Below are positions 1 to 12,027 of a stretch of DNA of 12,027 bases, piece after piece; within the stretch, counting starts at the first letter, position 1, and each line of letters opens with the position of its first letter. The notes under the pieces are model-generated. The model made no database searches and had not been told where the DNA came from. It saw nothing but the letters and a program-made list of their open reading frames with translations. The translations under genes and the position numbers were made by a program. Source of the stretch: a virus (lineage: Duplodnaviria; Heunggongvirae; Uroviricota; Caudoviricetes); IMG/VR virus record IMGVR_UViG_3300029567_000182, positions 1-12,027 of that record. One strand, given 5' to 3'.

Positions 1-1039
1 CCCGCCGTACCTGTTCGGCATAAAATGCCCAGTCCCACGGCTGCGCGCTAAACCCGCCTTGCTGCTTATCGATAACCGCCTGTATGGAGGGTAATTCATC
101 GCTAGCACGTTGACGCGCCGCTGGAACAATTTCCCGCATAAAGTTGAGTGCTGCTTCAGGTGTTTTTGCCATCTGATCGGCGATTTTCCATGCGGCATAA
201 TGAGGAAAACCAAGCAGTTTCGCCTGCTGTGCGCGAATCTCTACCAGACGTTGAATGATAGCGCGGGTATCATTGCCATCATTTTTTTCCGCTCGCGTCC
301 AGCCCGCAATAAACAGTTTTTCACGCGTCGCACGATCGCGCATTTCGGCAAGCGCCGGTTGTTGGGTGGTATTCAGCAGCGGAATCAGCCATTTGTTATC
401 CAGACCTTTCTCGCGAGCCGCCTCTGCCGCCAGCGCAATCTCTTGCTCACTCATTCCTGCCAGCTGCGCGATATCGTTCACAACCAGACCGCCGGATTTA
501 TTTGCTGCAAGTAACCGCTGGTTAAACTGGCTGGTCAGGGTCGCAGCTTCTGTATTCAGTACTTTTAATTTTGCTTTATCAGCTTGCGCAAGTTTGGCTC
601 CGGCAAGGACAAAACGTTGATGAATAACCTCCACCAGGCGGATGGATTCACTATCAAGCCCCAGGGATTCACGGCGCTGCCAGACAGCATCTACCCGCGC
701 GAATAATTCACCGTTCAGATAGATATCATTAGCCAGTTCCGCCAGTTCAGCGGAAAACTGTTCATCAAGACGCTGTAATTCATCATTGGTATGCGCCGCA
801 GTCATCGCAAAAAAGACGCTGGTAACGCGGGTAAGTAATTCTCCGCTTTGTTCCAGTGCCAGAATAGTATTGTTGAAATCAGGCGTTTGCGGGTTAAGCG
901 CGATGGCAGCAATTTCTGCCCGCTTTTGCTGCATTCCCTCATCGAATGCCGGGCGATAGTGATGATTGGCAATTTGATCAAAATGAGGAGCCAGATACGG
1001 CAGTGTGCTTTGCACAAGGAAAGGATTCATTGTTGTCAT
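1..1039 (-). CDS. dcp: dipeptidyl carboxypeptidase II (peptidase M3 family), N-terminal 346 codons; 3' end lies beyond the window start
   Basis: Reverse-strand translation from ATG at 1039..1037 reads MTTMNPFLVQSTLPYLAPHFDQIANH..., and at the window edge ...DKQQGGFSAQPWDWAFYAEQVRR, matching the Dcp N-terminus as I recall it. The frame is open to position 1. It is absent from the ORF track only because no stop codon lies inside the window. Confidence 0.92.
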   Translation of the reverse strand, partial: MTTMNPFLVQSTLPYLAPHFDQIANHHYRPAFDEGMQQKRAEIAAIALNPQTPDFNNTILALEQSGELLTRVTSVFFAMTAAHTNDELQRLDEQFSAELAELANDIYLNGELFARVDAVWQRRESLGLDSESIRLVEVIHQRFVLAGAKLAQADKAKLKVLNTEAATLTSQFNQRLLAANKSGGLVVNDIAQLAGMSEQEIALAAEAAREKGLDNKWLIPLLNTTQQPALAEMRDRATREKLFIAGWTRAEKNDGNDTRAIIQRLVEIRAQQAKLLGFPHYAAWKIADQMAKTPEAALNFMREIVPAARQRASDELPSIQAVIDKQQGGFSAQPWDWAFYAEQVRR

Positions 1040-1175
1040 TTTCTTCTCCTGAACGCGAGGTGTTCCATAGCGTAGGCTTACTGATAACGGAGTGCAATCT
1101 TGCAAACCAGTATTACCCGCTCTTAAGCATCACGTGCTATGTTATTGACACACAAAAGCGTTGAGGAACAGTGAG

Positions 1176-1922
1176 ATGATCGTTTTAGTAACTGGAGCAA
1201 CGGCAGGTTTTGGTGAATGCATTACTCGTCGTTTTATTCAACAAGGGCATAAAGTTATCGCCACTGGCCGTCGCCAGGAGCGGTTGCAGGAGTTAAAAGA
1301 CGAACTGGGAGATAATCTGTATATCGCCCAACTGGACGTTCGCAACCGCGCCGCTATTGAAGAGATGCTGGCATCGCTCCCTGCCGAGTGGTGCAATATT
1401 GATATCCTGGTAAATAATGCCGGCCTGGCGTTGGGCATGGAGCCTGCGCATAAAGCCAGCGTTGAAGACTGGGAAACGATGATTGATACCAACAACAAAG
1501 GCCTGGTATATATGACGCGCGCCGTCTTACCGGGTATGGTTGAACGTAATCATGGTCATATTATTAACATTGGCTCAACGGCAGGTAGCTGGCCGTATGC
1601 CGGTGGTAACGTTTACGGTGCGACGAAAGCGTTTGTTCGTCAGTTTAGCCTGAATCTGCGTACGGATCTGCATGGTACGGCGGTGCGCGTCACCGACATC
1701 GAACCGGGTCTGGTGGGTGGCACCGAGTTTTCCAATGTCCGCTTTAAAGGCGATGACGGTAAAGCGGAAAAAACCTATCAAAATACCGTTGCATTGACGC
1801 CAGAAGATGTCAGCGAAGCCGTCTGGTGGGTGTCAACGCTGCCTGCTCACGTCAATATCAATACCCTGGAAATGATGCCGGTTACCCAAAGCTATGCCGG
1901 ACTGAATGTCCACCGTCAGTAA
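1176..1922 (+). CDS. ydfG: NADP-dependent 3-hydroxy acid dehydrogenase, short-chain dehydrogenase/reductase (SDR) family, 248 aa
   Basis: ORF 1161..1922 in the track starts at a TTG; the in-frame ATG at 1176 (MIVLVTGATAGFGE...) preceded by GAGG is the more likely start. Classical SDR features: TGxxxGxG Rossmann motif (VTGATAGFG), NNAG, and catalytic Y-x3-K (YGATK). Confidence 0.92.
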   Translation: MIVLVTGATAGFGECITRRFIQQGHKVIATGRRQERLQELKDELGDNLYIAQLDVRNRAAIEEMLASLPAEWCNIDILVNNAGLALGMEPAHKASVEDWETMIDTNNKGLVYMTRAVLPGMVERNHGHIINIGSTAGSWPYAGGNVYGATKAFVRQFSLNLRTDLHGTAVRVTDIEPGLVGGTEFSNVRFKGDDGKAEKTYQNTVALTPEDVSEAVWWVSTLPAHVNINTLEMMPVTQSYAGLNVHRQ

Positions 1923-1930
1923 TTTTTATA

Positions 1931-1956
1931 CCCGGCGTAACTGCCGGGTTATTGCT
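1931..1956 (+). terminator. putative intrinsic terminator downstream of ydfG
   Basis: Hairpin cccggc-gtaact-gccggg (1931-1948) immediately after the ydfG stop, followed by a T-rich but interrupted tract (ttattgctt). Confidence 0.45.
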
Positions 1957-2010
1957 TGTCACAAAAAAGTGGTAGACTCATGCAGTTAACTCACTCACAA
2001 GCAAGAACGA

Positions 2011-2697
2011 ATGACCGTCGAAACGCAACTTAATCCCACACAGCCTGTCAATCAGCAGATTTATCGTATTCTTCGTCGCGACATTGTCCATTGCCTGATT
2101 GCACCAGGCACACCGTTGTCGGAAAAAGAAGTTTCTGTTCGTTTCAATGTGTCACGCCAGCCGGTTCGTGAAGCCTTTATTAAACTGGCGGAAAACGGCC
2201 TGATTCAAATTCGTCCGCAGCGTGGCAGCTACGTCAACAAAATTTCCATGGCCCAGGTGCGAAACGGCAGTTTTATCCGTCAGGCCATTGAGTGCGCGGT
2301 GGCGCGTCGGGCGGCGAGCATGATTACCGAAAGCCAGTGCTACCAACTGGAACAAAATCTTCACCAGCAACGCATTGCCATTGAGCGCAAGCAACTGGAT
2401 GATTTTTTTGAACTTGATGACAACTTCCATCAACTCCTGACGCAGATTGCCGACTGTCAACTGGCGTGGGATACCATTGAGAACCTGAAAGCGACCGTTG
2501 ATCGCGTGCGCTATATGAGTTTCGACCATGTTTCTCCACCAGAAATGCTGTTACGCCAGCATCTTGATATTTTCTCTGCCCTGCAAAAACGTGATGGCGA
2601 TGCGGTAGAACGTGCAATGACGCAACATTTGCAGGAAATCAGCGAGTCCGTGCGCCAGATCCGCCAGGAAAACAGCGACTGGTTTAGCGAAGAGTAA
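2011..2697 (+). CDS. ydfH: GntR-family transcriptional regulator (FadR-like subfamily), 228 aa
   Basis: ORF 2011..2697. N-terminal winged-helix region typical of GntR regulators (IYRILRRDI...[24 protein letters not shown]) and an all-helical C-terminal effector domain. Matches E. coli YdfH (also called RspR) as I recall it. Confidence 0.9.
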
Positions 2698-2705
2698 TTC
2701 ATTTA

Positions 2706-2737
2706 CTCTCATCCCATCCGGGATGAGAGGCTTTTCC
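2706..2737 (+). terminator. rho-independent terminator downstream of ydfH
   Basis: Perfect 10-bp stem ctctcatccc / gggatgagag with a 4-nt loop (2706-2729), followed by gcttttcc. Confidence 0.7.
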
Positions 2738-2773
2738 CCCCACCTTACGGCTCATGCATGCATCAAAAAAGAT

Positions 2774-2825
2774 GTGAGCTTGATCAAAAACAAAAAATAT
2801 TTCACTCGACAGGAGTATTTATATT
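2774..2825 (+). promoter_or_regulatory. putative ydfZ promoter with an FNR/CRP-type site (TTGATcaaaAACAA, 2780-2793) about 41.5 bp upstream of the inferred start point; -10-like TATTTA/TATATT at 2816-2825
   Basis: TTGAT-N4-AACAA is a 9/10 match to the FNR consensus TTGAT-N4-ATCAA. It overlaps TGTGA-N6-TCAAA (2774-2789), which is CRP-like. The spacing to the AT-rich -10 candidates fits class II activation. Flanking A-tracts. Assigned by motif only. Confidence 0.5.
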
Positions 2826-2874
2826 GCGCCCGTTACGTGGGCTTCGACTGTAAATCAGAAAGGAGAAAACACCT

Positions 2875-3078
2875 ATGACGACCTACGATCGTAACCGTAA
2901 CGCAATCACCACTGGCAGCCGTGTTATGGTTAGCGGCACCGGTCACACTGGCAAGATCCTGTCGATTGATACTGAAGGTCTGACCGCTGAGCAAATCCGC
3001 CGCGGAAAAACCGTAGTTGTTGAAGGTTGTGAAGAGAAACTGGCACCTCTGGACCTGATTCGTCTCGGCATGAACTAA
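2875..3078 (+). CDS. ydfZ: small conserved protein YdfZ (67 aa; annotated in E. coli as a putative selenium-binding protein)
   Basis: ORF 2875..3078 with a strong Shine-Dalgarno (AGGAGAAAACACCT-ATG). Sequence [32 protein letters not shown]... recognised as YdfZ. Confidence 0.88.
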
Positions 3079-3085
3079 GTGTGTG

Positions 3086-3116
3086 AATGCCGCCGATGGC
3101 GGCATTGCTTTTTTTA
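3086..3116 (+). terminator. rho-independent terminator of ydfZ, overlapping the stop codon of the convergent ydfI
   Basis: Stem aatgccgcc / ggcggcatt (3086-3106) followed by gcttttttt (T7 run, 3109-3115). The ydfI stop codon (TAA, 3114-3116 on the minus strand) sits in the T-tract. Confidence 0.75.
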
Positions 3117-4574
3117 CTTCACGGAATATTTCGCCACGGTCGCTTTCGCGCCATGCGCTAATAAAGACAAGTACGCTTCCGTCACTTTTGCAGTAAACAA
3201 GCTATTGTCTGGCAAATCATCACCAAAGATTGCCTTAATCGCCAGCAATGACTGGACGCGCGCTTTCCCTTCGGCACTACTTTGTACAGCCTTCTGAATA
3301 ACAGGTAACAGTGGGTCACTGATTTCTATCGGATTTCCCTGTTCATCAACACCACCGACATAACGCATCCAACCCGCGACGCCCAGCGCCAGCAGATCGA
3401 ACTTGCTGTCATGCGCCAGATGCCAGCGAACAGAATCCAACATCCGCTGTGGCAATTTCTGGCTACCATCCATCGCAATCTGCCAGGTTCGATGACGTAA
3501 CGCCGGGTTGCTATAGCGTGCAATTAATCGGTTAGCGTAATCTTGCAAATCAACGCCCTGCACTTTCAGCGTCGGCGCTTGTTCCTGCAACATCAAGCCA
3601 TACGCCGCATGACGATAATGTTCATCTTCCATACAGTCATTAATGTGCTGATATCCAGCAAGATAACCCAGATACGCCAGGAATGAATGACTGCCGTTGA
3701 GCATGCGCAACTTCATCTCTTCATAAGGCAGTACATCGCTAACCAGTTCTGCTCCCGCTTTTTCCCATTCCGGACGTCCGGCAACAAAATTATCTTCTAT
3801 TACCCACTGGCGGAAAGGTTCACAGGCAACGCCAGCAGGATCGCGCACACCGGTAAGTTGTTCGATTTTCGCAAGAGTATCCTCTGTCACTGCGGGCACA
3901 ATACGGTCCACCATTGTTGATGGGAAAGTCACGTTATCTTCGATCCATTGTGCCAGTTTTACATCAACGGCTTGCGCGTAGGAAGTGACAACGTCACGCA
4001 TAACATGACCGTTTTCTGGCATGTTGTCACATGACATAACGGTAAATGCGGGAAGTCCTGCCGCTTTACGGCGAGCCAGCGCCTCAACAATCACCCCTGT
4101 TGCTGTTTTCGGCTGGTGGGGATTTTGCACGTCGGCAGCGACCATCGGGTGATCGAGCATTAACTGTCCGGTCGCCGGAGAGTGGAAATACCCTTTTTCG
4201 GTGATTGTCAGAGAGACAATCGCAATTTGCGGTTCACACATCGCAGCCAGCACGGTTTCTAAGCCATCTATTTGTACGTGCAAGGCTTTTTTAACGACGC
4301 CAACGACGCGAGCCGTCCACGCGTCGGCCGACATTTCCGCAACGGTATAAAGATTATCTTGCTGTTGTAAATCGGCAATTTGCTGTTCGCCGCCGATTAA
4401 GTTGACCTCATAATATCCCCAGTCACTGAAATGTTCCGTAGCAAGAATATCGGCATACACGCCCTGATGCGCACGGTGAAATGCACCAAAGCCTAAATGA
4501 ACAATTCTTGGGGCCAGGTTATTACGATCATAAACAGGGAGTGTCGCTTTTGCTGATAACAAATTATTTCCCAT
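3114..4574 (-). CDS. ydfI: mannitol dehydrogenase-family oxidoreductase (mannonate/fructuronate reductase-like), 486 aa
   Basis: ORF 3114..4574. N-terminal dinucleotide-binding region ([16 protein letters not shown]) and overall length typical of long-chain mannitol dehydrogenase / UxuB-like enzymes. Recognised as YdfI. Confidence 0.9.
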
Positions 4575-4620
4575 AACAATTCCTTAAATATAAATATGGC
4601 AAGCTATATGTTTTGTTATA

Positions 4621-4654
4621 TGAATAAAAATCCCCTCTCCGGTAAGAGAAGGGA
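4621..4654 (-). terminator. possible intrinsic terminator downstream of ydfJ (minus strand)
   Basis: Imperfect stem tcccctctc / gagaaggga (4631-4654, one mismatch), followed on the minus strand by TTTTTATTCA. Lies between the ydfJ stop (4663) and the ydfI start (4574). Confidence 0.4.
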
Positions 4655-4662
4655 TTAAGGGT

Positions 4663-5946
4663 TTACAGACTTCTGGAAGGTTGCGCAGCTCTTACAACAC
4701 GCGGTTGATCTTCCGCAGCGTCTTCCAGCGCACTTAAATCACGGTCTTTCACCTCTGGCATTTTCAGCGCAGAGATTAAACCAATCACTGAATATGCCAT
4801 GATCATAATGGCGATCGGATACCAGGATTCCGTCATGGTGCAGAAAATACCCGCCAGGATAGGACCAAAACCGGAAGCGATAAGACCACCAATTTCTTTA
4901 GAAATAGCCATCCGGGTAAAGCGGTTTTTACAGCCGAACATTTCTGCCATGGTAATGTTTTCCAGAGCAAATAATCCCAGCACCGCACAGTTATGAATCA
5001 CAATCAGTGCAACCATAATGGTGCTCGGGGCATAGCTTTTATCTACAATGATAGAAAGCATTGGCCATGCCAGCACAATCGCGGAGGTATTCATAATAAT
5101 ATACGGGATCCGGCGACCAATTTTATCGGATAACCAACCAAGGAACGGAATGGTCATAAAGCCGAGAATCGAACTAATCATCAATGCATCTGTTGGAATT
5201 GCTTTGTTAAACAATAACGTCTGCACTAAATAGCCTGCAAGGAAAGTCTGAATTAACCCGGAGTTACCCGCCTGACCAAAACGCAGCCCTGTTGCCAGCC
5301 AGAAGGATTTGCTCTGGAACATGCTACCAGCAGGTGCAGGTTTTGCTGTGGGTTGGTTGCTGTCATTAACCTTCTCAAAGACCGGGCTTTCTTTCAGATT
5401 CATACGTAACCAGATAGCAAAGACCATCACGACAACGCTCGCCAGGAACGGTATACGCCATCCCCACGCCAGCAGTTCCTCTTTACTGAGAATGAAGAAC
5501 ACAAAGGCCCAGATTGCCGTTGCGCTCAAGGTTCCGCAGTTAGTTCCCATAGCTACAAATGAGGAGATAATTCCGCGCTTACCTTTTGGTGCATATTCCG
5601 CCAGCATCGTACCGGCACCGGAAATTTCCGCACCTGCACCCAACCCCTGAATAATACGCAGCGTCACCAGCAAGATGGGGGCAAAAACACCAATCTGTGC
5701 ATAGGTCGGTAACACACCAATTAAGGTGGTACAGATCCCCATCATGGTGATGGTAATAAAGAGCACTTTTTTACGCCCTATTCTGTCGCCCATTTTGCCG
5801 AAAATAAATGCTCCGACAATACGCGCCACATAACCTGCACCGTAGGTTCCCATTGCCAAAATTAACGCCATTGCCGTTGATGATTCAGGAAAAAATATTT
5901 CATGAAACACTAACGCTGCGCCGAGCGAATATAACTGGAAATCCAT
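4663..5946 (-). pseudogene. ydfJ: 5'-truncated MFS transporter gene (metabolite:H+ symporter family, ShiA/ProP/KgtP-like); remaining ORF 427 codons
   Basis: ORF 4663..5946. The signature G-x-M-x-D-R-x-G-R-K (GKMGDRIGRKK) lies only ~50 residues from the ORF start. The ORF begins MDFQLYSL..., which aligns to the conserved W-Y-D-F block that sits ~35-40 residues into ShiA/ProP, so the N-terminal cytoplasmic segment and the start of TM1 are missing. No Shine-Dalgarno precedes the ATG (upstream is aaaaaatatctatgaatt). Prophage DNA begins immediately upstream. Confidence 0.75.
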
Positions 5947-6164
5947 AATTCATAGATATTTTTTACCATCCTATGGATTTTTGGGCGTTTTCTAAGTTTT
6001 TTCAGATGGTTGTATTTTTTCTAAAAACTCCTGATCTCGATTTTGCTGTTTGTCTGAGGCCTTTTTATGTCCCATATATGCCCCAAGGTGCCCCATGTAA
6101 ATCCAATTCAACTCAAAGCATCCCTGTTCAATATTTTTACAAGGGGCTTGCATATCAGTGTTTT

Positions 6165-6734
6165 TTATTGCGTAACGTCAAACGCTCGGATTGAGCGTAA
6201 ATCCTCCAGATTATTCAGTTCATCCTTCATCTCCCGCTGCCGACGATAAATCTCATTATTGCGATCGACCTGTGCCTGCGCCATTGCTGCTGCCAGTTCT
6301 TCCAGTTCCTGCATTGACAGCGTCACCGGCTGATTATCTGCATCACCCCACGCAAGGGCGGTTCGTGCCGTATCAGATTTTGCGGCCATTACCACCGGAT
6401 AAAGACGGGCCATTGAGTCGGGGCCAGCATTCCAGGTACGACCGTTCCATTCGAACGTGAACGCCTTCGCCTCCTGTTCTGCTCGCCACGCCTCGATTTC
6501 CATCTTTTTGGCATCTTTTGCCGCTGCGATAAGTTCAGGTGTAATGGTGAACGGGGCGATTTCGCCCCATTTGCCGCTCTGTAACTCTTCCCAGATACGC
6601 TGGCCTGTTTCATCCATGTCTTCCGGCGATGCTGTGTAAGGCAAATACTCTTCCACACCGAAAAACAACACCTCACAATCCACAGCGCCATTTTCCAGCC
6701 TGCATATCTTTTTAATATCTTTTATTTTCATCAT
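6165..6734 (-). CDS. putative tail fibre assembly chaperone (189 aa), not of the lambda Tfa type
   Basis: ORF 6165..6734. Its ATG is 3 nt downstream of the stf stop (TAG-CTG-ATG-ATG), implying translational coupling. It occupies the position of tfa in lambda-like phages. The C-terminal half (FTFEWNGRTWNAGPDSMARL...W..DADNQPVTLSMQELEELAAAM...) resembles the conserved pattern of DUF4376-type tail-fibre-assembly proteins as I recall it. Function assigned mainly by context. Confidence 0.6.
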   Translation of the reverse strand: MMKIKDIKKICRLENGAVDCEVLFFGVEEYLPYTASPEDMDETGQRIWEELQSGKWGEIAPFTITPELIAAAKDAKKMEIEAWRAEQEAKAFTFEWNGRTWNAGPDSMARLYPVVMAAKSDTARTALAWGDADNQPVTLSMQELEELAAAMAQAQVDRNNEIYRRQREMKDELNNLEDLRSIRAFDVTQ

Positions 6735-6737
6735 CAG

Positions 6738-9041
6738 CTACCGTACCCGCACAAATAACCCCACAATAGTGTTGTTGTCAGCCATCAGTACACCACCCGA
6801 ACCAGATAACGCTCTGTATGCCCCGGGCAGGAAAAGCGAATATGACCGTCCACTGACATAACAAGTTGGTGTGATTCCTTTTACGCCAGCGCCTGTCGCC
6901 ACCCCTCCCGAGAATTCCACATGCCCCAGCCTTGAACCTGGATAAATCTTTCCTCTCTGCAGAGTTCTGGTCATATCGCTGTCTGATGTACCGTAATAGG
7001 CTGCAAGAATAATATTACCGACTTCCGGGGCCCGGCTATCACTCCCAAGCAGACTGGCAATCCCGCTTCTGTTTATGTAGCCTGAGTCCCAGGGGCGCAG
7101 GGACGGGTTTGTGGGATTTGCATCAAGAACTGTTCGATAGACATCCCCATACTGACCATAAAATGTCAGTAATTTTCTTTTGCCCTGATGTTCTGCCTGA
7201 CTGTATACCCTGTCAGAAATTTTAATTTCGAGCACTCCGGTAAAACCAATATCCGGAATGATGGGATTAAAATCCGGATGTGTTCTCTGCTCCACAAGGT
7301 AGCGCCCTGGCGGCGTCTGCATACACCAGGTTACAAGCTCAGACTGACCATCACTGGCACTAAAATATTTAATCGTCGAAGTCAGTGCTCCAAAACCCAA
7401 TGTCCCCGGTAATGCTCCTCTCCCTTCAGTGCGATCATAAATATTACTTTGTAATGCCACGCTATCTGAGATTTCAAGCACCTGCCGCATATCTTCGGAT
7501 GTGAACTGCGCCAGCAGTGAGCGGGCTTTTGCTGACAACGGAGACAGCGCAATATTCCCTCCGGTATTAAAATACAGAAGGTTATCTGCCCGTACTGTTA
7601 ATTTGCTAATCGCTGTTAAAATATCGCTAAGCGGCTGTTTACCTGCCAGTGCGTTAGTGACCGTCGTCGCAAAGTTTGGGTCATTACCCAGCGCCGCTGC
7701 CAGTTCGTTCAGCGTGTCCAGGGCTTCCGGGGACGAGCCAACCAGCGCAGCGAGCAGTTTGCGGACAAACGCCGCATTCGCCATCTCCAGTCCGACCGCA
7801 TCATCCGGTGGGGTTGGTGTGGTTGGCGTACCGGTGAATGCCGGGCTGTCCAGCGGCGCTTTGGTTTTCGTCTCGTCCATGACGATTTTGACGGCTTTTG
7901 GGGTTGCAGCAAATGCTTCAGATGTGCTGTTGGCAGCACTACTGAGCTGTACTATTCCCTTTTTCGTTGTACTCGCATCCTCAAGCCCCACGGCGGATGC
8001 GATATCCTCTGCCCGCTTTGCCGCTGTCTCGGCTCGGGTTGCCGCGGACTCTGCTGTACTTTTGCTCCGCTCAGCCTCCGCCGCACTGTCTGCCGCCTCT
8101 GTCGCCTTCGTAGCCGCAGCGTTGGCGGACGTCTCTGCAGCAGTTTCTGAATCTGCTGCAGCTGAGGCGTTCTGTGCTGCCGCTGTTTCAGAAGACCTTG
8201 CGTTCGTCTCGGACGTTTTTGCCGCCTTCGCGGAATTTCCTGCCGCCGTTGCCGAGGAGGCTGCACTACTGGCGCTCGAGGCTGCACTCGTTTCTGATGA
8301 TTTTGCCGCCTCTTTTGAAGCCGCCGCATTCCGTGCTGAAGTGGCTGCTTCTGACGCTTTCGTGGTCGCGGTGGATGCAGAAGTGGCTGCTGATTGTTGT
8401 GACGCTGCCGCATTCGTTTCAGACGTTTTCGCGGCACCGGCACTGGTGGCCGCCGCGCTTTTTGAGGACTCTGCTGCGGCAGCACTTTTTGATGCTTCAG
8501 TGGCCTTTGCTGATGCCGTTCCTGCGCTGGAAAAAGCCTCCTGAGCCGACGTCGCGGCCTGTCCGGCTGACGTTCTGGCTGCGCGTGCTGAGTCTGCAGC
8601 ATCAGTCGCATGGGTTGCCGCCTCACGGGCTGATGTGCTGGCATCGCTGGCTGACTTCTTCGCGGCTGCCGTGTTCTGTGCCACTGCGGACGCGTTACGC
8701 GCCACCTCTTCCACCATCAGTTCAAAGCGACGCAGTGCCTCCGGACGGGCATCATCCTCCGTCATGGCACCGAGAAAATCATTCAGCGTACCGGGTTGAG
8801 AATCTTCATACACGGTGATGGTCCCGGCATGTGACGGCGGGAACCCTTCCACCAACAAAATAACGCTGTACTGACCGTACTCAACGTCCATACTGTAACG
8901 CCCGGCTTCATCCGGATTTTCTGAGGCCAGCGTGTTCACCACCACCGTGGTGCTGTTACGTTTTGCTTTCAGCTGGATTGTGCAGTTCTGTACCGGTTTT
9001 CCTGTGCCGTCTTTCAGTACACCTGAAATCTTTACTGCCAT
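6738..9041 (-). CDS. stf: side tail fibre protein, lambda Stf family, mosaic (767 aa from ATG 9041; the ORF track uses GTG 9047)
   Basis: N-terminus MAVKISGVLKDGTGKPVQNCTIQLKAKRNS... matches lambda Stf. Long Ala/Ser/Thr-rich low-complexity segment (residues ~115-350). Conserved tail-fibre motif GIVQLSSAANSTSEAFAATPKAVK...LDSPAFTGTPTTPT (7812-7958). The lambda-like block LNELAAALGNDPNFATTVTNALAGKQP ends at 7632; the C-terminal ~297 residues (6741-7631) are unlike lambda Stf. Confidence 0.9.
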   Translation of the reverse strand: MAVKISGVLKDGTGKPVQNCTIQLKAKRNSTTVVVNTLASENPDEAGRYSMDVEYGQYSVILLVEGFPPSHAGTITVYEDSQPGTLNDFLGAMTEDDARPEALRRFELMVEEVARNASAVAQNTAAAKKSASDASTSAREAATHATDAADSARAARTSAGQAATSAQEAFSSAGTASAKATEASKSAAAAESSKSAAATSAGAAKTSETNAAASQQSAATSASTATTKASEAATSARNAAASKEAAKSSETSAASSASSAASSATAAGNSAKAAKTSETNARSSETAAAQNASAAADSETAAETSANAAATKATEAADSAAEAERSKSTAESAATRAETAAKRAEDIASAVGLEDASTTKKGIVQLSSAANSTSEAFAATPKAVKIVMDETKTKAPLDSPAFTGTPTTPTPPDDAVGLEMANAAFVRKLLAALVGSSPEALDTLNELAAALGNDPNFATTVTNALAGKQPLSDILTAISKLTVRADNLLYFNTGGNIALSPLSAKARSLLAQFTSEDMRQVLEISDSVALQSNIYDRTEGRGALPGTLGFGALTSTIKYFSASDGQSELVTWCMQTPPGRYLVEQRTHPDFNPIIPDIGFTGVLEIKISDRVYSQAEHQGKRKLLTFYGQYGDVYRTVLDANPTNPSLRPWDSGYINRSGIASLLGSDSRAPEVGNIILAAYYGTSDSDMTRTLQRGKIYPGSRLGHVEFSGGVATGAGVKGITPTCYVSGRSYSLFLPGAYRALSGSGGVLMADNNTIVGLFVRVR
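7992..8699 (-). repeat. low-complexity, quasi-repetitive coding DNA (Ala/Ser/Thr-rich shaft region of stf)
   Basis: Recurring GCN/TCN/ACN-rich strings encoding SAA/TSA/AAK-type repeats. Stop-free in several frames on both strands, which explains the overlapping 347-, 230- and 214-aa ORFs in the track. Confidence 0.7.
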
Positions 9042-9048
9042 ATTCACC

Positions 9049-9078
9049 CCACAAAAAAGCCCGCCTGAACCGGCGGGC
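9049..9078 (-). terminator. intrinsic terminator downstream of lom, abutting the stf start
   Basis: 7-bp GC-rich stem gcccgcc / ggcgggc with loop tgaacc (9059-9078), followed on the minus strand by TTTTTTGTGGG (complement of 9049-9058). Confidence 0.65.
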
Positions 9079-9105
9079 TGTCATAACACTGTGTTACCTG
9101 GCTAA

Positions 9106-9705
9106 TCAGAATTTATAACCGACACCCACGATGAAACCGTCAGTGCGCCAGTCACCACTGCCGGAGCCTTCATAAGCAATATCAATGGCCACGGATTCGG
9201 TCGGGTTAAACTGCACGCCTGCCCCCCACGCCAGAGACGTGTTGCTGTGGCGACTGTCATCACTTCCGGTCAGCACATCGTGCTTTTTCCCCTTGTTGTC
9301 AGTTACGCGGATATAATCTCCGGAGAAAGTCGAAACACGGCTGTAAGCCATACCCGCCATCGCATACGCGCTGAACCATTCATTCACGCGCACAGAGGGC
9401 CCCGCCATCACGCTGAACCAGCGGTTACGCACAGAATCTTCATGCCAGCGGGTATCGCTGTAACGGGTCAGCTGGCGATTCTTGTCTCCTGCATAGCTGA
9501 ATGACGTCACCAGCCCCAGTGTGTCCGTAAACTCATAACGGTATTTCACGTTAATCCCGTTCAGATTATCGCTGCCGGGAGCGTTCGTTGAGGCATGGAG
9601 ATACCCCGCGCTCAGCGTGGACTGATGTTCTGCTGCACTCGCTGGCGTAGCAGCGGCGACCTGCCAGACTACTGCGGACAAAATAACAGCACATAATTTA
9701 CGCAT
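9106..9705 (-). CDS. lom: Lom outer-membrane beta-barrel protein (Ail/Lom/OmpX/PagC family), 199 aa
   Basis: ORF 9106..9705 with Shine-Dalgarno GAGAGGTAATT-ATG. Signal-peptide-like N-terminus (MRKLCAVILSAVVWQVAAATPASA), C-terminal ...GVGYKF typical of OM barrels. Near-identical to lambda Lom as I recall it (EHQSTLSAGYLHA.TNAPGSDNLNGINVKYRYEFTDTLG...). Confidence 0.93.
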   Translation of the reverse strand: MRKLCAVILSAVVWQVAAATPASAAEHQSTLSAGYLHASTNAPGSDNLNGINVKYRYEFTDTLGLVTSFSYAGDKNRQLTRYSDTRWHEDSVRNRWFSVMAGPSVRVNEWFSAYAMAGMAYSRVSTFSGDYIRVTDNKGKKHDVLTGSDDSRHSNTSLAWGAGVQFNPTESVAIDIAYEGSGSGDWRTDGFIVGVGYKF

Positions 9706-9726
9706 AATTACCTCTCGCTTTTCTGC

Positions 9727-9753
9727 AATAAAAAAGGCGCCATTTCTGGCGCC
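9727..9753 (-). terminator. intrinsic terminator between J and lom
   Basis: Stem ggcgcc / ggcgcc with loop atttct (9736-9753), followed on the minus strand by TTTTTTATT (complement of 9727-9735). Lies between the J stop (9773) and the lom ribosome-binding site. Confidence 0.6.
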
Positions 9754-9772
9754 CGTATCTGGGTTATAAAAT

Positions 9773-12027
9773 TCAGCTAATCGTGATGCCTGCAGTGGCT
9801 TTCTTCATCACCACAACCAGCAAATCGCTGATACTTGCTGTGGGATACCAGTTATTTACCAGCCACGCTGACACCGAAAACTCCAGCGTCATGTGACCGT
9901 GACCAGCCGGCATATCAATAACACCACTGTAAATCAGCGTATTATCCAGCGCGGTACGGTTATAAATTTCAGCGCCGTTTTTCCGTACGATCAGACGGCA
10001 TGAGGAGTAAATATCAGTATGCTCTTTCTCATGTTTAGCGCCACTGAATGCCACCGCCGGAATAACAATCTGCCGGTCAAACGGCTGATCGTCATAAACC
10101 CTGACGGTAATGGTTCCTGATGGCCACCGCTCCGGTGCACGGGAGTCCCGGGGGAAAGCTTTGCCCACTGTTTTAACGAGATCGCCTTCAATCTGGTTCG
10201 CGGACAGTTTTCCCAGAACCCGACAGTTCTCGTTAATCGTGACGTTGTTGAGCGTCCCTGAGTTCGCATTCACGTTACCGCTGATATCGGCATTTTTCGC
10301 CGTCAGCCGCCCGTCCGGTGTCAGGGAAAATGCCGGAGGATTACCGCCGCTGGTAATGGTCGGAGCCGTCAGGCGTTTCAGGAACACGTCGTTCATGAAT
10401 ATCTGATCGCCCTGACCAACAAACATTGGTCTTGTGTTGCCATTAGACGGATCAATAAACGCGATACGGTTAGCGGCAACCAGGAACTGGCTCAGTTTGC
10501 CTTCCTCCGTGTCCTCCATGCTGAGGCCAAGCCCCGCGACATAATGCTTACCGTCTTCGGTCTGCTCAATTTTGACGCCCCACATGGCATTCCATTTATC
10601 GTTGGCGTCTTTCCACTCTTTCGAAAACTGATCCAGTCTGCTGGCGTTATCTTCCGTCAGGTCGACTTTTTCCAGCAGCTCCTTGCCGAGATGGGATTCG
10701 GTTATCTTGCCTTTGAAAAAATCCAGGTAACCTTCCGCATCATCGCTCGCCCGACCGACGGCCTCCACGAATGCCGATTTGCCAACGGTGTTCACACTGC
10801 GGATATAAAAGTAATAATCATGGCCCGGTTTGATATTGATACTGGCGGCTATCCAGTACAGCCCCGCGCCAAGGTAGCGGGCTGTGGTTTCAACCTGCCT
10901 GATATCGGTAATCCGCGTTTCCGAGAACCAGAACTCAAACTGTACCGTCGGATCATAAACCTCAAGATGCGGCGTGGCAGTTATCTGAAAATAGCCCGGC
11001 GTCAGCTCAATCCGCGACGGTGCTACCGGTGCGGCAATCCTGAACGATACCGACGCCGGATCGCCCTGCTGTCCCCACGCATTTACCGCCCGGACTGTCA
11101 GCGTGTACCGTCCCAGCGCCAGTTGCGTGAAGCGGTATGTGGTTTCCGTCGTCCGGGCCGTGCTGACCAGCCGCTCACTGCCGTCATCCGCTGCCACGGT
11201 CAGGCGAAGCAGGAAGCTCACGCCCTTCACCACCTTCGGCGTGTCCCATCGCGCCAGCACCTGATATTCCCCGCTGTCTGCAGTGACTTCGGCGGTCAGA
11301 TGCTGCACTGCTGGCGGCGTGACACCATTCACCGTGCCGCTCTGGTCGCCGTCAAAGTGCGCCCCGTTATCCACGATGGCCTCTTTTTCCGGTACATGCT
11401 GCACGGCGGTGATGGCATACGTGCCGTCGTCGTTCTCACGAATACTCACGCAGCGGAACAGGCGCTGGCGCAGCGTCGGCAGCTTCAGCCCCCACACGCT
11501 GTATTCAGCAACACCGTCAGGAACACGGCTCACTTTCACCTTCACGCCGTCGGTGACGGACTGAACCTCCACGCTGACCGGACTCCCCTGCCCGTCAACC
11601 AGGCTTATCAGCGTGGTGCCGGAAGATGGCAGCGTGATTTCACGGTCGAGCGTCAGCGTCCGGGTCTGGCTGTTTACCGCCAGCACGCGCCCGCCGATGC
11701 TGATACCGGCATAGTCATCATCACAGATTTCAATGACATCGCCCGGCACATGGCGAAGCCCTTCTGCGCCCACGCTGAAGTCCACGGTCTGCGTTTCCAG
11801 CAGTTCTGTTTTAATCAGCCACAGCCCGGCGCGGTGTGCCTGCCCCCGGCTGGTACAGCCAAAGGCATCCATCTTCGTGACGTTACGACCGTAACGGGCA
11901 ATGGCCTGCGTATCCTCCACAAGCTCTGTCGCCGTCTCCCAGCCGTTGTTCGGGTCAATCCAGTTCACCTCAACGGCATTATGGCGGTCTTTCAGGGCGC
12001 TGAAGCTGTAGCGGAACGGCGCGCCAT
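9773..12027 (-). CDS. J: tail tip / host specificity protein J (central tail fibre), C-terminal ~750 codons; the 5' end of the gene is beyond the window end
   Basis: The track ORF 9773..11968 starts at an internal Met. The frame stays open to 12027 and reads ...[47 protein letters not shown]..., recognised as lambda J. Contains the fibronectin-III-like and C-terminal receptor-binding region. Confidence 0.93.

Follow-up and report, generated by a model that had tools for sequence, protein, structure and literature searches.

The window analyzed here, by which we mean the whole 12,027-nucleotide (nt) stretch of viral DNA (IMG/VR record IMGVR_UViG_3300029567_000182, positions 1 to 12,027), consists of Escherichia coli chromosomal genes joined to the right end of a lambdoid prophage. 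On its minus strand lie, in this order, J, lom, the side tail fiber gene stf and an open reading frame (ORF) for a 189-amino acid (aa) protein, followed by the host gene ydfJ, which is the gene order of a lambdoid Stf locus. Our subject is stf (6738-9047, minus strand; stop codon 6738-6740), recognized from the ORF list, a match to PF08400 (E 5.8e-72) and matches to phrog_8713 and phrog_2636, together with its 189-aa neighbor (6165-6734, minus strand). An earlier, sequence-only reading had proposed that the distal end of this fiber was exchanged for another, and had mentioned a 189-aa protein downstream; the ORF for it is indeed there, starting 3 nt past the stf stop. The stf ORF comprises 769 codons from a GTG at 9047 and yields 767 aa from the lambda-equivalent ATG at 9041, so that two numberings are in use, that of the ORF finder (769), beginning two codons earlier, and that of the sequence-only reading (767).

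From its N-terminus, the fiber begins with an anchor (8640-9041, minus strand; aa 3-136 in the 769-numbering) that matches the prophage tail fiber N-terminal domain PF08400 over profile positions 1-134 of 134 (240.4 bits, gathering cut-off 26.6), and continues into an Ala/Ser/Thr-rich shaft (7962-8639, minus strand), delimited by translation, composition profile and alignment to the lambda shaft. A conserved collar block follows (GIVQLSS...TPKAVK...DSPAFTGTPT...LNELAAALGNDPNFATT..ALAGKQP; 7632-7961, minus strand), whose 3' end is the limit of lambda DNA homology. Beyond it come a neck (LSDILTAIS...ADNLLYFN...KARSLLAQ...MRQVLE; 7467-7631, minus strand; aa 473-527, 769-numbering) and a beta-rich tip core (6741-7466, minus strand; aa 528-769, 769-numbering), a putative receptor-binding module with two sub-domains, D1 (residues ~531-654; invariant motifs Q..IYDRTEG..A.PG..G.G, W and PGRY) and D2 (residues ~660-769), which ends in GLFVRVR.

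The distal module of Stf and its relatives

Up to the collar, the fiber is closely similar to that of lambda: residues 3-397 share 83% identity with orf-401, which in lambda PaPa is the N-terminal fragment of Stf, and blastn of the window against lambda gave one high-scoring segment pair at 82% identity, running from 9185 down to exactly 7632, with no match beyond. Translation of 6738-7700 reads ...ALAGKQP and then LSDILTAISKLTVRADNLLYFNTGG..., with the codon boundary at 7632/7631, reproducing what the sequence-only reading had quoted, and the GKQP block that it had named as the joint relative to lambda is precisely where the DNA match stops. Its further statement that the protein departs completely from lambda after GKQP is right from about residue 526 onward, where there is no alignment to lambda Stf and the lambda-type His-rich repeats are absent (the tip has three His in all, without lambda's HxH repeats), but does not hold for the neck. 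Residues 463-524 (769-numbering) are still 37% identical over 62 aa to the start of lambda orf-314 (pairwise E 4e-8), and hhalign of the tip against lambda gave 88% probability over the neck, to which the similarity is limited; beyond residues 463-524 no homology to the His-rich distal part of orf-314 was found.

The distal stretch of ~297 residues had been taken as one module, a view that the data do not bear out, since its first ~55 residues are a conserved, lambda-homologous neck and the break in other E. coli prophages lies at 7474 or 7396 rather than at 7632. Compared with L003, a closely related E. coli prophage, the window matches at 95% over 7396-9200 and at 90% over 6179-6509, but shows no DNA match in 6510-7395, homology resuming only at 6509; therefore the cassette exchanged between the two (6510-7395, minus strand) takes in most of the tip (aa ~551 onward) and codons 1-75 of the gene for the 189-aa protein. 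Many other genomes lose homology at 7474. With homology ending at 7632, 7474 or 7396, recombination has used no fewer than three nested joints, and the proposal that the distal part is a horizontally exchanged module of the receptor-binding type is supported, with its DNA joint against lambda at 7632.

Though the sequence-only reading had not assigned the tip to a known family, it is a member of a small family found mainly in enterobacterial phages and prophages. Searched alone, it gave E 3.8e-42 against the profile of PHROG 2636 ('tail fiber protein'), of which it covers the C-terminal half, residues 57-296 aligning to profile positions 326-567 of 568. A tblastn search of 50,697 phage records found 14 with tip relatives at 32-38% identity, including phiP27, Rac-SA53, SerU-LTIIb, Av-05 and related Vequintavirinae, with Goslar as a partial match. 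A word-indexed protein search returned 31 clusters, one of them 79% identical and the others 30-57%, and an exhaustive HMMER scan of 1.84 billion representatives returned 85 clusters at E <= 1e-3, the match nearly always lying at the extreme C-terminus. Homologous tips terminate fibers whose N-terminal scaffolds are of three kinds (PF08400, PF03406 and PF12571). Across the alignment, a conserved start (Q..IYDRTEG..A.PG.FG.G, W...PGRY) and a conserved end (GLFVR) enclose variable middle segments, and in some proteins the first sub-domain occurs alone or doubled. The exact allele of the window is rare but not unseen: near-identical copies are already in public genomes, with six records at >= 98.7% identity among 5,426 complete E. 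coli genomes and two IMG/VR contigs at 95-98%.

The closest comparison among well-known systems is lambda (Ur-lambda) itself, which shares the J-lom-stf-tfa position at the prophage end, the anchor and shaft, the collar up to GKQP and, weakly, the neck, and whose Stf has OmpC as its receptor (as cited in PMC12312913). It differs in that the distal ~240 residues of the window's fiber are unrelated to lambda's His-rich, gp37-like tip, and in the partner protein encoded downstream. Conversely, the fibers of phiP27, Rac-SA53 (tail3/tail4), SerU-LTIIb (stf/stf2) and Av-05-like phages (Av05_0076/0077) are homologous over the full tip (32-38% identity, 91-100% coverage) and are directly followed by a DUF4376 gene, 43-77% identical to that of the window, yet they carry other N-terminal scaffolds on other virion types (as in the Vequintavirinae phage Av-05); their tips are only 32-38% identical and so represent different specificity alleles. 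Among phages, the tip most similar to that of the window (38.5%) belongs to L006, Actinobacillus phage vB_Apl-pPE4 (PP818812.1, 1448-4014). Although this phage is recorded from an Actinobacillus host, its DUF4376 protein shares 73% identity with the E. coli protein and closely resembles that of Rac-SA53; this points either to a doubtful host assignment or to a recent transfer of the module.

Searches for a structural relative agreed with the earlier statement that the tip is neither lambda-like nor T4 gp37-like, as no alignment to a lambda tip, a gp37-type tip or a solved structure was obtained. Against PDB chains the single tip sequence gave chance matches only (E >= 0.39), and the family profile matched only in the pre-GKQP collar block, which is common to many family members and hits the solved fiber 9d93 gp4 (E 1.4e-9), with no gp37 match. 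An AlphaFold2 monomer of the 297-residue stretch had a mean predicted local distance difference test (pLDDT) score of 69.9, with ~85 at residues 90-180, 65-85 in the C-terminal sub-domain and low values in the neck, and Foldseek against BFVD returned only relatives detectable by sequence (the Goslar and Av-05 fibers). Because the PDB searches by sequence and profile reach only the collar block, the tip cannot be assigned to a solved family, and the predicted model is of too low quality to claim a new fold. Literature searches gave no receptor data for any member of the tip family and nothing relevant on the carrier phages, PhiR5 and PhiR12 yielding unrelated papers only.

In some fibers the first sub-domain (EGR.A.PGAFG.G...) stands in tandem, and in very long fibers it is internal, as seen in P0004, P0010, L005 (Rac-SA53 tail3, 2501-4069), Av05_0078 and the Goslar fiber. 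It behaves as a "knob" that can be repeated, which recalls the duplicated knob of the Alteromonas A5 fiber (PMC10579305).

The family is also poorly served by annotation. The tip has no Pfam match, NCBIfam has none for Stf, the tip or the 189-aa protein, and the family is absent from the PDB. RefSeq records processed by the Prokaryotic Genome Annotation Pipeline (PGAP) label the stf homologues of three E. coli prophages (L002, 7757-8860; L003, 4687-5841; L087, 2935-4068) as pseudogenes ('incomplete; missing C-terminus'), leaving the tip unannotated, although none of the ORFs is broken and they encode 764-769 aa. The gap in annotation seems to be a general one for this tip family: the NCBI pipeline calls intact genes truncated, so that the family is systematically invisible in genome annotation.

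Pairing of the tip with a DUF4376 protein

The 189-aa protein belongs to PF14301 (DUF4376; 57.8 bits, gathering cut-off 25, residues 71-177) and to phrog_1141 (E 6.8e-85). Compared with lambda Tfa (orf-194) it gave a BLAST E of 0.39, an hhalign probability of 0.6% and no match to the Pfam family Caudo_TAP, and as judged by sequence it is unrelated to that protein; similarity to TfaMu (5YVQ) or gp25, in structure or in sequence, was likewise not found. Its AlphaFold2 model (pLDDT 89.8) predicts an N-terminal beta/alpha domain followed by long helices.

The sequence-only reading had asked whether relatives of the tip always co-occur with relatives of the downstream protein, and they do. Of 80 IMG/VR loci with a gene for a tip relative, 75 could be evaluated, and in every one of these 75 a homologue of the 189-aa protein is encoded directly downstream (E 3.5e-17 to 6e-119); the same order is found in Av-05, Rac-SA53, pPE4 and three E. 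coli genomes. The converse fails, since DUF4376 homologues also occur in phages with no tip relative in the tip search, for example the P-Eib prophages. In the records of the ECOR-9 prophages P-EibA/C/D/E (AF151091, AF151674-6), ORF-191 is a DUF4376 homologue at 37-40% identity and sits just upstream of the immunoglobulin-binding eib genes, which therefore directly follow a fiber-chaperone gene at the prophage end.

Within the 189-aa protein, the link to the tip is confined to one domain. Over 68 unique tip-chaperone pairs, tip identity correlates closely with identity of the N-terminal domain (aa 1-75, a predicted small beta-sheet plus helix; 6510-6734, minus strand), with a Pearson coefficient of 0.85-0.87, compared with 0.58 for the fiber neck and 0.11-0.21 for the C-terminal domain (aa 76-189); the C-domain lies nearer to the tip on the DNA than the neck does. 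The prophages L003 and L087 provide a natural domain swap inside the gene: the tip allele is the same in both and the N-domains are identical, whereas the C-domains of the DUF4376 proteins are markedly different (genes compared: L087, 1196-1810; L003, 2990-3583). L087 also has an extra DUF1353 gene downstream. Both the co-variation and the swap fit a modular chaperone with a variable fiber-binding N-domain and a conserved C-domain, and this domain-wise pattern matches, by analogy, the model drawn for TfaMu and Pam3 gp25, in which the variable N-domain binds the fiber tip and the conserved helical C-domain drives assembly (PMC9608196). The pairs Mu fiber/TfaMu (PDB 5YVQ) and Pam3 gp24-gp25 are alike in just these two respects (PMC9608196).

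DUF4376 proteins are documented tail fiber chaperones of the Alteromonas phages V22 and A5 and of the Campylobacter CJIE1 prophage, and have been found experimentally to be required for the V22 fiber and the CJIE1 H-fiber; they are proposed to cap the distal fiber end, and in exchanges between unrelated phages fiber and chaperone go together (PMC10579305, PMC7289586, PMC7882524). In V22 (gp26/gp27), A5 (gp8/gp9) and the CJIE1 H-fiber, as in the window, the DUF4376 protein is encoded directly after the fiber gene, whereas the fiber tips of these phages bear no detectable sequence relation to that of the window, and no Alteromonas or Campylobacter phage was among the tip relatives in either the tblastn of phage records or the IMG/VR loci. 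By analogy with these systems, we infer that the 189-aa protein would be a dedicated assembly chaperone of the window's fiber.

A probable tip-chaperone cassette and its alternatives

Tail fiber tips decide which strains a phage, or a phage-derived delivery particle, reaches. In the explanation that we consider likely, a swapped tip and a dedicated DUF4376 chaperone move together as a cassette. The window would then hold the host-range end of a lambdoid prophage integrated next to ydfJ, in which a lambda-type baseplate anchor and Ala/Ser/Thr-rich shaft were joined by recombination to a different distal module made up of the conserved neck (aa 471-525, 767-numbering) and a ~240-residue, beta-rich tip of two sub-domains (aa 526-767). 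From its position, the tip would be the receptor-binding end of a trimeric fiber and might mediate a reversible first attachment to a strain-variable surface structure, either an outer-membrane protein loop or lipopolysaccharide, after which J, with a C-terminal domain that is also unlike lambda's, would make the committed contact. The variable N-terminal ~75 residues of the DUF4376 protein would recognize the particular tip allele, and its conserved helical C-terminal part would serve generic oligomerization and assembly, as for TfaMu and Pam3 gp25. If the N-domain does recognize the tip allele, tip and N-domain would for that reason travel as one recombination cassette.

A different division of labor, with the 189-aa protein as the actual distal adhesin, like gp38 of T2/T6-type phages, and the Stf tip as a docking adaptor only, would suit the names its relatives bear ('tail fiber protein' for phrog_1141 in PHROGs, 'tail fiber protein' or 'side tail fiber' in GenBank), and it could accommodate both the co-variation of the N-domain with the tip and the ability of TfaMu and the Alteromonas chaperones to stay bound as a 'cap' (PMC7882524, PMC10579305). 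However, the 189-aa protein is far more conserved than the tip, with a mean pairwise identity of 66-72% against 43-48% and a mean column identity of 72-83%, which argues against a gp38-like adhesin. It has no hypervariable loops of the gp38 type, the variability being located in the fiber; its conserved half is predicted to be mostly long helices; and DUF4376 proteins act as folding factors in other phages (PMC10579305, PMC7882524). We therefore regard an adhesin role as improbable.

A second possibility is that the two genes no longer function and are left over from a cryptic prophage in decay, the tip having lost its role in adsorption. Four independent copies of the stf ORF each keep all 769 codons, and the ratio of nonsynonymous to synonymous substitution rates (dN/dS) is below 1 in all comparisons (tip 0.12-0.79, shaft 0.14-0.23), which together argue against decay, as do the uninterrupted state of J, lom, stf and tfa and the presence of the 3-kb cassette, at 98% identity, in prophages that are integrated elsewhere, next to potB. 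The window shows the prophage end only, and prophages at the ydfJ site (Qin in K-12) are often defective, so that a relic would not be out of place here; the pseudogene labels that PGAP gives to homologous stf genes point in the same direction, but these are annotation artifacts on intact ORFs. On balance a relic seems quite improbable. It is barely credible that the C-terminal part of the tip, instead of binding, acts as an intramolecular chaperone or as an enzyme (depolymerase); neither a Peptidase S74 nor a beta-helix domain, of the kinds seen in intramolecular chaperone and tailspike depolymerase tips, was found.

Taken as a cassette of swapped tip and dedicated chaperone, the finding is ordinary tail fiber mosaicism, a rare allele of a recognizable but uncharacterized tip family, and only an unusual receptor or fold would make it more valuable. 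Tentatively, and with some doubt, we suggest that the ~240-residue tip core may be a receptor-binding fold with no solved representative, recognizing an E. coli receptor that characterized phages do not yet exploit, and that its strict pairing with an allele-specific DUF4376 N-domain could make it a distinct portable cassette, one that could be moved to lambda-type particles by way of the joints at GKQP, in the neck or in D1. Practical boundaries for engineering chimeric lambda Stf fibers are provided by the natural joints, which lie at 7632, 7474 and 7396 within stf and at 6509/6510 within the chaperone gene, and by the rule that the tip has to be moved with the N-domain of its chaperone.

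Neighboring genes and integration site

Upstream of stf on the minus strand lie lom (9106-9705) and J (9773 to beyond 11968), both with very strong Pfam scores. Taken as a whole, J shares 83% identity with lambda J, but the C-terminal ~130 aa (~9776-10170, minus strand), the receptor-binding domain, have strongly diverged; the specificity of the central fiber was probably exchanged as well, and its receptor may be other than LamB.

The host genes are, we take it, ydfG (1161-1922), ydfH (2011-2697), ydfI (3114-4574) and ydfJ (4663-5946), names for which the annotation of matching genomes was also used. The exact ydfJ junction with the window's tip is in no complete E. coli genome of the collection (junction compared: window 5947-6164, where the prophage abuts ydfJ, and L002, 5763-5989). 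In other E. coli strains the stf-DUF4376 cassette (98.3% identical over 6179-9200) forms the end of a prophage that adjoins potB.

The shaft region is GC-rich with a strong AT skew and yields long spurious antisense ORFs. Those of 214-347 aa that run antisense to or out of frame with the shaft (7501-8544 and 8174-8818, plus strand; 7952-8644, minus strand, other frame) are compositional artifacts of this repeat region, and lambda's annotated orf206b occupies the equivalent place.

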